Assembly: GCA_965249745.1 (NCBI GenBank)
Contig: OZ252252.1
Coordinates: 1,533,146-1,597,145 of the forward strand
Length of the DNA: 64,000 nucleotides
Source of the DNA: Deinococcales bacterium
GTDB lineage: Bacteria; Deinococcota; Deinococci; Deinococcales; JAAFIG01
Direction: 5' to 3'
Under the pieces are notes generated by a model. It did no database searches. It saw only the letters and a program-made list of their open reading frames with translations, and was not told the origin of the DNA. How positions within the stretch are numbered: position 1 is the first letter of the stretch; each line of letters starts with the position of its first letter. This document shows, one piece after another, positions 1 through 64,000 of this stretch. Position numbers and translations under genes: made by a program.

Positions 1-1410
1 GCCTACGCGGTCGCCGCACTTGTGACCGGCCGACTCGGTGAGGAGTGGCTGGTGCAGACGCGCCGCTGGAGCCTGACCGCCTGGATTTTTCTCAGCGCCG
101 CGATCATCGCGGGCGGCTGGTGGTCGTATGAGGTCCTCGGCTGGGGCGGGTATTGGGCGTGGGACCCGGTAGAGAACGCCAGCATCGTGCCGTGGTTTAT
201 GGCGACCGCCTACCTTCACAGCCTGCAAATCCAGGAGCGTCGCCGGATGCTGAAAGGCTGGAATTTAGGCTTGATCGTGGCAGCCTTCACCAGCACCCTG
301 CTGGGAACCTTTTTAACGCGAAGCGGCGTGGTGCAGAGCGTTCACAGCTTCACCCGCACGCCGATCGGGCCCGTCTTCTTCGCGTTCTTCACCCTGGTCC
401 TAATTGCCACCTTGATCCTGGCGTACCGCCGCCTGCCGCAAATCCGCGACGAACACCAACTGGACAGCCCAGTCTCGAGGGAGGGTGCGTTTCTGACCGG
501 GAATCTGCTGTTCAGCAGTTTCGCCTTCACGGTCGTGGTCGGGACGCTCTTTCCGGTCTTCGTCGAGGCGTTCACCGGCGCGAAGACAAGCGTCGGACCG
601 CCGTTCTTCAACGCGGTCGGGATTCCGCTCGGGTTGGGGATTCTGGCCTTGCAGGCGATGGGACCGGCATTGACCTGGCGACGCGCCACCGGGGAGACCC
701 TGCGGCAGAATTTGATGCTGCCCGCGATCCTGGCGCTGATGATGGGTGTGGTCGCGTTCGTTCTCGGGGTGCATCTCTGGAGTGTGCTGCTGACGATCAT
801 CCTGAGCTTCTTCAATATCTTCGTCGTGGTGCGCCTGACCGCCAAAGCGGTTCGCGCCCGAACCAAGGCGAACCGTCAAAACCCGGTCTCGGCGCTCGGG
901 GATTTACTGAACTTGTTCCCGCGCCGTTACGGGGCGTACATCGCGCACCTCGGCGTGGTCGTGGTTGCCCTGGGGGTAGCCTTCAGCGGCGGGTACAAAT
1001 CCGAGGCGCAGCTCAGCTTTCAGCGCGGTCAGACCCAGACGGTCATGGGGCATCGCGTGACGTTCAACGGCATCGCCGGGCGCAAGGAATCCGACCGCGA
1101 TGTCACGGCCGCCGACCTGACCCTGGACGGCGGCAAGTTCTACCCGCGCCAGAACAATTACCGCCTGCAACAGACCACGGTCTCGAGTCCGGCGATTCAA
1201 TATCATCTGCTGGGTGATTTCTACGCGGTTTTCCTAGAAAGTGACGACAGCGGTTCTCAGGTCGGCCTGAAGTTCATCAGCAGTCCCCTGGTGAGTTGGA
1301 TCTGGGTCGGTGGGCTGATCCTGGTGGTCGGCGCGGGGCTGACGCTGATCCCGAGCGTCGTCGGCGAAGCTCGAGTCAAAACCAGCGCTGTCTCAGTTGC
1401 CACCGATTGA
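1..1410 (+). CDS. ccmF: Cytochrome c-type biogenesis protein CcmF, C-terminal ~465 aa (5' end outside window)
   Basis: Frame is open from base 1. Translation carries the CcmF signature WWSYEVLGWGGYWAWDPVENASIVPWF and many TM helices. Followed by ccmG/ccmH. Confidence 0.85.
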   Translation, partial: AYAVAALVTGRLGEEWLVQTRRWSLTAWIFLSAAIIAGGWWSYEVLGWGGYWAWDPVENASIVPWFMATAYLHSLQIQERRRMLKGWNLGLIVAAFTSTLLGTFLTRSGVVQSVHSFTRTPIGPVFFAFFTLVLIATLILAYRRLPQIRDEHQLDSPVSREGAFLTGNLLFSSFAFTVVVGTLFPVFVEAFTGAKTSVGPPFFNAVGIPLGLGILALQAMGPALTWRRATGETLRQNLMLPAILALMMGVVAFVLGVHLWSVLLTIILSFFNIFVVVRLTAKAVRARTKANRQNPVSALGDLLNLFPRRYGAYIAHLGVVVVALGVAFSGGYKSEAQLSFQRGQTQTVMGHRVTFNGIAGRKESDRDVTAADLTLDGGKFYPRQNNYRLQQTTVSSPAIQYHLLGDFYAVFLESDDSGSQVGLKFISSPLVSWIWVGGLILVVGAGLTLIPSVVGEARVKTSAVSVATD

Positions 1411-1435
1411 AATTAGAAACCTTGAGGTATTTGTC

Positions 1436-1972
1436 ATGAATCCCAACCTTCGTAAAATCCTGATACCTGCCGTGATCGTCGTGCTGTTGGGCGGGCTGTT
1501 CGCGGCGCTGCTGCGGCCCGCCGATACGGGGAATACCAGCACGGCCGCCGTGGCAGGGAAACCCGCGCCGGACTTTACACTCACCACGCTCGAGGGGAAG
1601 ACCGTCAGCCTAGCGCAGTTCAAGGGCAAACCGGTCGTGCTGAACTTCTTTGCCTCGTGGTGCGTGCCGTGCAAGGACGAAGCGCCGATGATCTCGCAGG
1701 CGGCCAAGGATTTTAAGGACGTGGTGTTCCTGGGCGTGGCGTACAACGACAAGCTGCCAAAGACCAAAGAGTTCCGCGATACCTACAACCTGTCGTTCCC
1801 AATCGCGGTGGACAACGACAGCGACCTCGGTCGGACGAGCGTCAAGTACGCCCTGTTCGGCGTGCCGGAGACATTCTTCATTGACCGCCAGGGGGTCGTC
1901 CAGAAGCACGACCCGCAACCGATTAGCCGCGCCCAACTCGAGGCGGGTCTGAAGACCATCGGGGCGATTTGA
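1436..1972 (+). CDS. ccmG: Thiol:disulfide interchange protein CcmG/DsbE (TlpA-like thioredoxin)
   Basis: ATG at 1436 (the ORF track's 1397 start overlaps the ccmF end). N-terminal TM segment. Thioredoxin motif FFASWCVPCKDEAP. Its stop overlaps the ccmH ATG (TGATG). Confidence 0.85.
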   Translation: MNPNLRKILIPAVIVVLLGGLFAALLRPADTGNTSTAAVAGKPAPDFTLTTLEGKTVSLAQFKGKPVVLNFFASWCVPCKDEAPMISQAAKDFKDVVFLGVAYNDKLPKTKEFRDTYNLSFPIAVDNDSDLGRTSVKYALFGVPETFFIDRQGVVQKHDPQPISRAQLEAGLKTIGAI

Positions 1973-2424
1973 TGCGGAAAGCAGTCTCGAGGATTTGCGC
2001 CTTGTTTATGGTGCTGCTCGTCTCGAGTGTGCTGGCACAGACCCCGGCTGACGATTCGACGCGGGCGATTGGCTCCACGCTGAAATGCCCGGTCTGCAAC
2101 GGCTTGTCCATCACCGAATCCCCGAGCGATTTTGCCCGCAGTATGCTCGAAGAGGTGCGCTCGCAGGTCAAGGCGGGCAAGTCTCCGACTGAGATCAAGG
2201 CGTTCTTTATCGGGCGCTACGGTGAGAGCGTGCTGCTCTCGCCGCCGTTCTCCGGGCTGACGCTGCTGGTCTGGCTGTTGCCGCTCGCCGCGCTCGGGCT
2301 GGGCGGCTGGGGTTTGGCGGGGTACCTGCGTCGCGCCAGCCAGCCGAAACCCTTGGAACCCATAGACGCCGCGCTTTTAGAGCGGGTGCGTTCCTTGCGT
2401 GACGACTCGAGGAGGCAAGCGTGA
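1972..2424 (+). CDS. ccmH: Cytochrome c-type biogenesis protein CcmH/NrfF
   Basis: Signal peptide, the CxxC motif LKCPVCNGLSITESPSDFA, and a C-terminal TM segment. Stop overlaps the next start (GTGA). Confidence 0.8.
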   Translation: MRKAVSRICALFMVLLVSSVLAQTPADDSTRAIGSTLKCPVCNGLSITESPSDFARSMLEEVRSQVKAGKSPTEIKAFFIGRYGESVLLSPPFSGLTLLVWLLPLAALGLGGWGLAGYLRRASQPKPLEPIDAALLERVRSLRDDSRRQA

Positions 2425-63205: not shown

Positions 63206-63801
63206 GCGTCTCCCAGGGGTGCGGCGAACTCGGAAAGTTGACCGCGCAATTTATCTAAAGCGTATTTCAGGCGTGACTTGACAGTGCCGACGGGTACGTT
63301 CATCTGGGCGGCGATCTCTTCTCTGGACGCACCCCGAAAGTACGCCAATTCGACCGTGCGACGGTGCGCTTCGGAGAGGTCCACCATTGCGGCCCGCACC
63401 CGCACCGCCACAGACGCCAGCTCAGCCCGCTCCAAGGGACCGATGCCATCGCTCGGGATCGGCAGTGGATCGCCCTCCTCGTCAACGATCGGCGTCGTGA
63501 AGCGCTCGCGGCGCAGGGCATCTATCGCGGCGTTGCGGGTCAGAGTCATCAGAAACGTGGACAGCGCCGCCCGGCCCGGCTCGAAGCCGCCGGGATTGCG
63601 CCAGAGCTTCATCAGGGCATCCTGGACGATCTCCTCAGCTTTCGGGGCGCTGTTGCAGACCCGGAGCGCCAGGCCGTACAGAGCGCTCGAGTAGCGGTCG
63701 TACAGCTCCGAGAAGGCCGATTCGTCCGCGAACACCAACCGGGCCACCAGCTCGGCATCGCTGAGCGAGGTGTACTCGAGGGCGTTGGACATAAGCTCCA
63801 T
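63202..63801 (-). CDS. ECF (sigma-70 family) RNA polymerase sigma factor
   Basis: Region 2 (FSELYDRYSSALYGLALRV...AEEIVQDALMKLW). Region 4 (LSEAHRRTVELAYFRGASREEIAAQMNVPVGTVKSRL). Confidence 0.85.
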   Translation of the reverse strand: MELMSNALEYTSLSDAELVARLVFADESAFSELYDRYSSALYGLALRVCNSAPKAEEIVQDALMKLWRNPGGFEPGRAALSTFLMTLTRNAAIDALRRERFTTPIVDEEGDPLPIPSDGIGPLERAELASVAVRVRAAMVDLSEAHRRTVELAYFRGASREEIAAQMNVPVGTVKSRLKYALDKLRGQLSEFAAPLGDA

Positions 63802-63945
63802 TCTACTCGCCGCTCTGAAGCCCGTGTTGTACGTCATTGGAAACGCCAGGGTCACATCTCACCTCAAAAGAGATACGCACGACCCTTCAAAACGGTTCAA
63901 CGGTGCTAGAAACCCAGTGCTGGAAACTCGAGTAAAATCCACAGC

Positions 63946-64000
63946 ATGGACACCCTCTCCCCGCTCGAGGTGCGCGTGCTGGGCGCGATGATGGAAAAGC
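63946..64000 (+). CDS. Partial CDS (5' end only), possibly DUF480/YceH-like
   Basis: MDTLSPLEVRVLGAMMEK resembles the YceH N-terminus (..LxxLEARVIGxLLEK). Only 18 codons are in the window. Confidence 0.3.
   Translation, partial: MDTLSPLEVRVLGAMMEK

Follow-up and report, generated by a model that had tools for sequence, protein, structure and literature searches.

Why does a single six-base palindrome, CTCGAG, recur so densely along a stretch of Deinococcales chromosome, and what keeps it there? The stretch, referred to here as the window, comprises 64,000 bases (59.9% GC) of contig OZ252252.1 from a Deinococcales bacterium (assembly GCA_965249745.1). An exact count gives 287 copies of CTCGAG per 64,000 bases (4.48/kb, or ~1 per 222 bp), which makes it the rank-1 hexamer of the window, 2.4-fold over the next; the hexamers that follow, TCGAGC (118), CCTCGA (102) and GCTCGA (101), are mere overlaps of CTCGAG. 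An earlier sequence-only reading of the window had estimated 3–5 sites per kb against one per 3 kb predicted from base composition, an over-representation of about ten-fold, and these figures proved accurate. The mononucleotide null predicts 20.7 copies, or ~1 per 3.1 kb, for a 13.9-fold excess, and Markov nulls of order 1, 2 and 3 predict 28.7, 26.6 (10.8-fold) and 62.5 (4.6-fold) copies. The count against a maximal-order (order-4) Markov expectation proposed in that reading was also run and yields 246 expected copies against the 287 observed. Because the pentamers CTCGA (320) and TCGAG (338) owe their abundance to CTCGAG alone, this expectation is uninformative; the maximal-order null was therefore dropped as circular, and the excess is judged here by orders 0–3, where it is evident, and by codon-aware nulls.

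For the codon-aware null, synonymous codons were shuffled among identical amino acids, which leaves every protein and the usage of codons unchanged. The 58 genes to which this was applied were called with an iterative codon-usage model, and Pfam identified most of them as everyday housekeeping genes, among them ccm cytochrome-c maturation genes, DAHP synthase, aroK/aroB, queA, rpsO, ppx, fabH, a two-component system and an ECF sigma factor. Coding DNA contains 217 copies of CTCGAG, compared to 45.2 ± 5.8 under the synonymous shuffle (4.8-fold, z ~30) and 23.3 ± 4.7 when codons are shuffled within genes. According to the sequence-only reading, its claim would be overturned if the count were no higher than a codon- and dipeptide-aware model allows. 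Since the count lies ~30 standard deviations beyond the codon-aware null, the observation stands. The mononucleotide baseline overstates the effect, and ordinary GC-rich genomes reach 3–9-fold by that measure, owing to their preference for the codons CTC and GAG. Measured against the codon-aware null, such generic genomes show 1.5–2.2-fold, at 2–3 sites/kb, almost only in the CTC-GAG frame and with little non-coding excess. The feature of the window thus differs from that of generic GC-rich genomes in kind, beyond a difference of degree.

The distribution of the sites within the window also points to DNA as the level on which the excess acts, rather than codons. All three reading frames are used: 127 sites are read as CTC-GAG (38.5 expected under the synonymous shuffle), 48 as xxC-TCG-AGx (2.3 expected) and 42 as xCT-CGA-Gxx (4.4 expected), so that the two off-frames are 10–20-fold above expectation. 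The last of these uses the otherwise rare CGA codon, which makes up 10% of arginine codons outside sites and has 51 of its 167 occurrences inside CTCGAG. Sites are most crowded in non-coding DNA, where 9.9 kb hold 70 of them (7.1/kb), compared to the ~2.9 (0.3/kb) expected; the density is highest between convergent genes (9.8/kb) and lowest between divergent genes (5.2/kb). Over eight positions on each side, the information content of the flanks does not exceed 0.054 bits per position, and palindromic 8-mer extensions of the word are depleted (43 vs 76, p = 3e-6). The enriched unit is therefore the bare hexamer with variable flanks, as had been supposed, along with the use of all frames, of CGA and of intergenic DNA. 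The sites are evenly spread (coefficient of variation of the spacing 0.92; variance/mean per 2 kb 0.72), with no significant clustering or under-dispersion in the window relative to a Poisson process (p = 0.12), and only 5 of 59 genes lack the word altogether. Protein constraint opposes the force that maintains the sites: coding DNA is less dense in them than non-coding DNA, and the highly conserved Mrp/ApbC gene is free of them (Table 1).

Related genomes were compared, as the sequence-only reading had advised, and the excess turned out to be shared by the lineage and absent from Thermus and D. radiodurans. Relatives were ranked via the Ppx/GppA gene of the window. The closest are metagenome-assembled genomes (MAGs) of uncultured bacteria labelled Deinococcales (66–82% identity), followed by Meiothermus and Calidithermus (58–60%); the controls included loci from a QueA search, mostly from unrelated phyla (best 74% identity). 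In the 13 Deinococcales MAG and metagenome loci (among them L001–L007, L010–L012, L022 and L229; GC 47–63%), CTCGAG is the top hexamer throughout, at 4–7 sites/kb and 5–14-fold over the codon-aware null, the scale used for all the genomes that follow. Non-coding DNA of these loci holds ~10–40 times the expectation, and the largest excess is seen in the relatives at 47–51% GC. Calidithermus chliarophilus DSM 9957 (70% GC) has 4.0 sites/kb, a 2.9-fold excess, with CTCGAG again the top hexamer and 17 non-coding sites vs 1.3 expected. Meiothermus ruber DSM 1279, sampled at CP001743.1 1197941–1219449 (L231), has 2.6 sites/kb (4.1-fold), with 13 off-frame sites vs 1.1, while M. rufus and M. granaticius have 2.5–3.7 sites/kb (2.4–3.6-fold). 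Allomeiothermus silvanus, of which only the megaplasmid was sampled, stands at 1.9-fold, Thermus thermophilus pTT27 at 0.4-fold, the T. caldilimi chromosome at 0.7-fold and D. radiodurans MP1 at 0.4-fold. The excess is thus an old trait of a sub-lineage of Deinococcota, kept through a 20-point shift in GC content (47–70%).

The window comes from a chromosome of 5,085,195 bp, compared to 2.0–3.1 Mb for the other Deinococcota genomes examined, and extrapolation of the density to the full 5.09 Mb gives ~23,000 copies of CTCGAG. The word is also the top hexamer, at 4–6/kb and in all frames, in five phage-like viral contigs from IMG/VR without an assigned host (L221, L188, L209, L153 and L208). Two of these, L221 and L188, have Leu-Glu as their top dipeptide (2.1–2.2-fold). 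Searches with the capsid and tail proteins of the CTCGAG-rich viral contigs returned distant matches only; by tblastx, L188 matches D. radiodurans MP1 once, at a ParB-like sequence, and the contig L194 has compositional matches only.

The abundance of the word has left an imprint on the encoded proteins. Leu-Glu occurs 278 times in the window proteins where 124 are expected (2.2-fold), ranking first of 362 testable dipeptides, while the reverse dipeptide, Glu-Leu, is at 1.02. CTCGAG spells 128 of the 278 pairs, even though outside the sites CTC accounts for 17% of leucine codons and the preferred CTG for 47%. As the surplus of Leu-Glu (~154) is roughly equal to the number of CTCGAG-encoded pairs, it is the DNA word that drives the dipeptide, not the reverse. 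The same ratio is 2.0–2.6 (rank 1–3) in every locus of the lineage, 1.2–1.9 in Meiothermus, 1.55 in Calidithermus, 1.13 in A. silvanus, 0.9–1.3 in the controls and 1.03 in Thermus TaqI methylases. Individual families behave likewise. For example, Leu-Glu is 1.97-fold over expectation in 41 Ppx proteins of the lineage compared to 1.26-fold in 78 outside homologues (53–61% identity, mostly from Meiothermus, Calidithermus and Thermus), and SurA-like proteins show 1.7 within the lineage compared to ~0.8 in four (P0167–P0170) of the five most distant homologues and ~1.0 in the fifth (P0171). Leu-Glu pairs are written as CTCGAG at odds 7.8 times those expected under neutrality. A rough calculation would put the scaled intensity of the force at ~2 for the recoding of Leu-Glu and ~3 in non-coding DNA, where the excess is ~25-fold. 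A force at the level of DNA, acting on the bare hexamer, thus overrides codon preference and some amino-acid identity.

Comparison of aligned sites between related genomes shows that the word is retained as well as abundant. Between L003 and L012 (92.8% identity), 49 of 58 and 50 of 56 CTCGAG sites are kept, compared to 66% of all hexamers (p = 1e-3 and 6e-5). When either is compared with L004 (87% identity), 27 of 29 and 27 of 38–41 are kept vs 46–48% of all hexamers; between the window and L229 (75% identity), 12 of 19 vs 24% (p = 3e-4); and between M. ruber and a Meiothermus-like genome (84% identity), 32 of 50 and 32 of 43 vs 39% (p = 3e-4 and 3e-6). Conservation of CTCGAG is therefore 1.3–2.6 times the all-hexamer value in every pair compared. 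Polarising the changes on the L003 and L012 branches, with L004 as outgroup, showed that 2 of 54 ancestral CTCGAG sites were lost, compared to a change in 20.8% of the ancestral hexamers overall (Fisher p = 4e-4), a loss rate ~five times below that of the average hexamer. The same two branches show three gains, of which two, from CTTGAA and from TTAGAG, needed a double substitution. Where a site is missing in Meiothermus, CTGGAG/CTCCAG usually stands in its place, the synonymous CTG/CTC switch of leucine. New sites thus arise through amino-acid change as well as through the recoding of Leu-Glu from CTG-GAG or TTA-GAG to CTC-GAG, and the force on the sites, opposed by protein constraint, is at an equilibrium of gain and loss.

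Other palindromes are treated in the opposite way. The remaining 63 palindromic hexamers total 411 occurrences in the window vs ~1,100 expected, in line with the earlier remark that palindromes are usually avoided in bacteria; CTCGAG stands against this tendency. CTGCAG, CCCGGG, GAGCTC, GTCGAC, GGATCC, GGCGCC, CAGCTG and GACGTC, with 20–46 expected of each, are absent, and the median observed-to-expected ratio is 0.19 for GC-rich palindromes vs 0.96 for non-palindromes. Because the window shuns other palindromes in this way, CTCGAG cannot be read as a restriction target of the XhoI type; it is enriched, not avoided. Several degenerate palindromes are nearly missing as sets: for GRGCYC, GAGCTC, GAGCCC and GGGCTC are at 0 and GGGCCC at 5; for RTCGAY, ATCGAC, GTCGAT and GTCGAC are at 0 and ATCGAT at 1; and RGATCY is low (GGATCC 0, AGATCT 3, AGATCC 3). 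This pattern in the letters points to several possible restriction systems, past or present. GATC itself is 1.6-fold over-represented in the window, with the asymmetric words TGATCG/CGATCA at ~4-fold in the window, L001 and L006, and is nearly absent from L012 (8 vs 84 expected) and low in L002 (28 vs 84). The sets of avoided words are labile between sister lineages, whereas the CTCGAG excess is stable.

Methylation of CTCGAG, which the sequence-only reading had named beside repair and uptake as a possible function, is on record for cultured relatives. Supplementary file 4 of Blow et al. 2016 (PMC4752239), a survey by single-molecule real-time sequencing, reports active type II N6-methyladenine (m6A) methylation, CTCG(m6A)G, for three of them: M. 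ruber DSM 1279 (M.Mru1279II, Mrub_2385; 99.5% of CTCGAG methylated), M. (Calidithermus) chliarophilus DSM 9957 (M.Mch9957IV, MeichDRAFT_0814; 94.1%) and Marinithermus hydrothermalis (M.Mhy14884I, Marky_0034; 94.6%). A partner endonuclease is listed for none of the three methyltransferases, and the entries for M. silvanus DSM 9946 include no methylation of CTCGAG. The survey also lists, for M. ruber, a GGWCC methylase with a restriction partner and an RGATCY system that has its restriction enzyme. In our counts, GGWCC is avoided 26-fold in M. ruber (3 vs 79 expected), a clean case of restriction-driven avoidance beside the CTCGAG excess. Both sampled methylase-positive strains, M. ruber and C. 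chliarophilus, carry that excess, and the negative A. silvanus is at the generic level.

Searches for the corresponding gene were made with M.TaqI, whose query sequence agreed with the PDB and with which Marky_0034, annotated 'Eco57I', shares a Pfam domain. A tblastn search of M.TaqI against 2.2 Mb of comparison DNA gave no match, and the top 120 matches of a homology search were all close homologues (56–98% identical), presumably specific for TCGA. An exhaustive search of representatives, together with ten candidates of 490–565 residues, yielded no named enzyme from Deinococcota.

The closest parallel is HIP1, the highly iterated palindrome of cyanobacteria (Elhai 2015, PMC4390886), which is under selection (Xu et al. 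2018, PMC5861425). When methylated, HIP1 raises natural transformation of Synechococcus PCC 7002 >100-fold, without involvement of a restriction system (bioRxiv 10.1101/2024.09.10.611283), and its abundance co-varies with the DNA-transfer machinery (bioRxiv 10.64898/2026.06.24.733823). Like HIP1 (GCGATCGC), CTCGAG is a hyper-abundant, lineage-wide short palindrome found in all coding frames and in non-coding DNA and conserved above the neutral level; in both cases other palindromes are strongly avoided, cognate methyltransferases lack a restriction partner (here in relatives) and there is no tie to promoters. Three of the features by which this class is recognised are present: CTCGAG is the top palindromic word, many-fold over expectation, is shared by the lineage regardless of GC content and has sites conserved above background. 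The class is also marked by a periodic distribution on the 10–90 kb scale; over the 64 kb covered here, the spread of CTCGAG is even. The likeness drawn by the sequence-only reading is therefore well founded, extending to the use of all frames, conserved positions and the avoidance of other palindromes. However, the two systems differ in phylum and in scale, with a 6-mer at 4.5–7/kb here compared to an 8-mer at 0.3–2.7/kb for HIP1, and in chemistry: HIP1 has a 5-methylcytosine enzyme (for CGATCG) and an m6A enzyme (for GATC), whereas CTCGAG has a single m6A methylase of another class, documented in relatives. HIP1 proper was also considered and discarded as the identity of the word, which is CTCGAG; CGATCG is below expectation in the window (11 vs 21).

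On balance, and with modest confidence, we favour the interpretation that CTCGAG is a HIP-like, methylated, genome-wide mark that is kept by weak selection or drive and read in DNA transactions. The organism would carry an orthologue of the solitary CTCGAG methylase of its relatives, and the sites would then form a dense, symmetric m6A mark, maintained by weak selection at each site or by an equivalent fixation bias. Thermus and Deinococcus, the best-studied genera of the phylum, are naturally competent. Their competence, together with the HIP1 precedent, makes a methyl-dependent self-tag our first choice: by analogy with HIP1, the mark may serve in the recognition or processing of conspecific DNA during natural transformation and recombination, and molecular drive could cause a tag of this kind to spread. 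In its most specific form, this would be an independent HIP-like system, in which a solitary TaqI-class m6A methylase and a palindrome constitute a methylated 'self' tag for conspecific uptake or recombination, pushed by molecular drive to ~23,000 copies, with enough force that the Leu-Glu content of the proteome doubled; we offer this form only tentatively, as a possibility that may well prove wrong. As a second choice, the mark might act as a Dam-like post-replicative signal of hemimethylation. Pairs of CTCGAG may have been secondarily co-opted as terminator stems.

Several observations weigh against the favoured interpretation. The search for a CTCGAG methyltransferase suggested by the sequence-only reading came back empty, in that no methyltransferase, restriction or Vsr gene is found within the 64-kb window or in the comparison loci. 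The link between methylase and abundance consists of two positive strains and one negative strain, the latter sampled on its megaplasmid. Other sites of solitary methylases in M. ruber (GATC, TTAA and AATT) are near expectation and not enriched, so a solitary methylase removes avoidance and is by itself insufficient for an excess. Moreover, the methylase-positive cultured species have a weaker excess (3–4-fold) than the lineage of the window (5–14-fold), so the level must depend on more than methylation. The elevated retention of sites fits selection, biased repair or biased fixation alike. Uptake of DNA by Thermus is reported to be independent of sequence, which weakens the reading as an uptake signal, and to our knowledge Deinococcota lack MutH, which weakens a Dam-like role in repair.

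Other than a methylated mark, CTCGAG might be bound directly, irrespective of methylation, by an abundant system such as an uptake receptor or a nucleoid- or chromosome-organising protein, with methylation incidental; in the case of a receptor, CTCGAG would be an uptake signal that molecular drive has spread, like those of Haemophilus and Neisseria. The density, even spread, use of all frames, proteome imprint, non-coding excess and terminator stems all mirror uptake sequences, the above-background retention fits drive or selection, and the solitary-methylase sites of M. ruber that are not enriched imply that more than methylation is needed. We nevertheless regard direct binding as unlikely, since six palindromic bases offer little specificity compared to known uptake signals, which are oriented and 9–12 bases long, no receptor or binding protein is known, and the joint presence of excess and methylase in M. 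ruber and C. chliarophilus, with both missing for A. silvanus, would have to be a coincidence. A functionless origin is less probable still: biased mutation or repair, through very-short-patch-like correction or biased gene conversion, could make and restore CTCGAG as a by-product. The combination of lower loss and recurrent gain is as expected from conversion bias, and the phage-like contigs L221 and L188, which share both the excess and the Leu-Glu bias, fit a process that acts on any DNA replicating in such cells. But none of the one-step neighbours behaves as a sink. On the two strands together, CTTGAG/CTCAAG occurs 30 times vs 28 expected and TTCGAG/CTCGAA 49 vs 28, and GTCGAG/CTCGAC alone is low (14 vs 41); a Vsr-type repair footprint was thus rejected, as the CpG-transition neighbours are not depleted and the methylation of the relatives is m6A, which gives no T:G mismatches. 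The main gain is a G-to-C transversion at the third position of leucine codons, accompanied by gains of two substitutions, and no known repair bias produces either. The persistence of the trait across 47–70% GC is a further difficulty.

Two simpler accounts fare worse. That the word simply follows from codon usage and from a preference for Leu-Glu in proteins is very improbable. It draws on CTC-GAG being the commonest frame (127 of 217) and on ordinary GC-rich genomes reaching 2–3 sites/kb by this route, but is refuted by the 4.8-fold excess over a null that preserves proteins and codon usage and by the density in non-coding DNA; in addition, the off-frames are the most inflated in coding DNA, CTC is a minor leucine codon, the surplus of Leu-Glu is about the size of its CTCGAG-encoded part, and the largest excess is that of the relatives at 47–51% GC. 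A dispersed mobile or repeated element, of the repetitive extragenic palindromic type or resembling a miniature inverted-repeat transposable element, or else an artefact of assembly or cloning, could account for those copies that lie in intergenic hairpins. This we give next to no credence, since 76% of the copies are inside ordinary housekeeping genes; the featureless flanks and the orthologous positions common to independent assemblies refute it.

Beyond HIP1, the methylated-mark interpretation can be set beside several known systems. The uptake signal sequences of Haemophilus and the DNA uptake sequences of Neisseria resemble CTCGAG in reaching at least ~1 copy/kb, in their even spread over all frames, their imprint on peptides, their inverted-pair terminators and their restriction to a lineage. 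They differ in being 9–12 bases long, non-palindromic and free of methylation, with an uptake specificity shown by experiment. An oriented motif of that type with conserved flanks was accordingly excluded for this 6-base palindrome. In Nocardia, a solitary, lineage-conserved methyltransferase recognises the same word, but there the sites cluster locally at the replication origin, between dnaA and dnaN (Blow et al. 2016, PMC4752239), compared to a genome-wide excess here, in a 64-kb window that contains no origin. The Dam/GATC system of Gammaproteobacteria likewise pairs a solitary m6A methylase with a palindrome at ~1 site per 220–250 bp, and the density of CTCGAG is that of a random tetranucleotide; however, GATC reaches its density by chance, without enrichment, and its readers MutH and SeqA are known. 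We know of no MutH- or SeqA-like reader in Deinococcota. The TaqI/TthHB8I systems of Thermus share the TCGA core, and the 'Eco57I' annotation common to M.TaqI and the Marinithermus CTCGAG methylase. The outcome there is the opposite, namely avoidance: in Thermus, TCGA is at 0.35–0.6-fold and CTCGAG at 0.4–0.7-fold of the codon-aware null, because the methylase is paired with a restriction enzyme. In a sample of T. thermophilus HB8 pTT27 (L102, 1–50000), 45 of 49 TCGA sites lie inside CTCGAG, with 4 vs 121 expected in other contexts, such that the CTC-GAG codon pair is the sole tolerated context of TCGA in this TCGA-restricting species. A hyper-abundant palindrome with a solitary methylase is thus known as a class; what differs here is the motif, the methylation chemistry, the phylum and the clear imprint on the proteome. 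In our literature search, incomplete in coverage, an excess of CTCGAG in Deinococcota was nowhere described; a paper on CTCGAG in the honeybee is unrelated.

Pairs of sites also build structures. The sequence-only reading had noted CTCGAG in terminator stems and hairpins at rpsO, 20613 and 61470; all three exist and fold well, and altogether five extended hairpins, the rpsO terminator among them, rest on such pairs (Table 1). One of these, at 31401, falls within the first 70 bases of the longest open reading frame of an SPFH/Band-7 gene (31368–32471). It probably terminates the MFS gene that lies upstream, in which case the true start of the SPFH gene would lie further downstream. The inverted repeat in the divergent region upstream of the TetR-family gene could form a hairpin or serve as an operator. 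Close pairs of sites, with a gap of 1–12 bases, number 9, far above the shuffle; as independent evidence, this excess was set aside, as the density of sites alone predicts ~15 (Poisson estimate).

Table 1. Coordinates of CTCGAG features and of other features in the window, with folding energies where calculated
Feature	Coordinates	Strand	Details
Dispersed CTCGAG set	1..64000		287 copies: 217 coding (all three frames), 70 non-coding
Longest CTCGAG-free stretch	48925..50689		1,771 bp between sites, inside a SurA-like peptidyl-prolyl isomerase gene (Pfam)
Site-free Mrp/ApbC gene	12485..13537	-	0 sites, Poisson p = 0.015; highly conserved, 79% amino-acid identity to relatives (Pfam)
Densest gene, function unassigned	51488..52120	+	9 sites (14/kb), p = 0.001
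rpsO intrinsic terminator	29760..29791	+	two CTCGAG (29768-29773, 29778-29783), stem extended to 14 bp, then U tract; -22.9 kcal/mol, z = -4.1
Long hairpin 3' of G8/CEMIP-domain gene	61466..61523	+	stem with CTCGAG at 61479 and 61508; -34.5 kcal/mol, z = -6.6
Hairpin 3' of minus-strand gene 19954-20595	19916..19947	-	stem CCCTCGAG...CTCGAGGG with CTCGAG at 19923 and 19937; -21.0 kcal/mol, z = -5.3
Inverted repeat CCCTCGAG-N5-CTCGAGGG	20612..20634		divergent region between gene 19954-20595 and TetR-family gene 20723-21307 (TetR_N domain); -20.2 kcal/mol
Perfect 15-bp stem	31401..31433	+	CTCGAG at 31407 and 31422, just 3' of MFS transporter gene; -28.0 kcal/mol, z = -7.3
Intergenic tandem repeats	15428-15488, 27540-27583, 54032-54068		23 bp x2.7 (100% identity), 11 bp x4 and 13 bp x2.8
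Repeat inside gene with eCIS-core domain	32767-32924		66 bp x2.4
Gene for G8/CEMIP-domain protein	58673-61447	+	924 residues; G8 (E = 1e-34) and CEMIP beta-helix (E = 2e-69) domains

Two further features of the window can be mentioned. The 13-bp intergenic repeat lies just upstream of a response-regulator gene. The protein with G8 and CEMIP beta-helix domains has an architecture that is familiar mainly from animal proteins.

The function of hyper-abundant palindromes has been unresolved for thirty years, during which they were studied in one phylum only. An independent case, with another word, m6A alone, another phylum and cultured members with methylomes, enables a comparison, and an explanation that covers both HIP1 and CTCGAG probably captures the real function. 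A DNA word that reshapes the proteome bears on models of protein evolution, on codon-pair statistics and on composition-based binning of metagenomes. In this lineage, the density of CTCGAG marks native as opposed to recently acquired DNA, and XhoI is useless as a rare cutter. Pre-methylation of donor DNA might improve the genetic tools for Meiothermus and its relatives. If the palindrome is indeed a self tag, the cultivable Meiothermus and Calidithermus would provide a second tractable model for the function of highly iterated palindromes.

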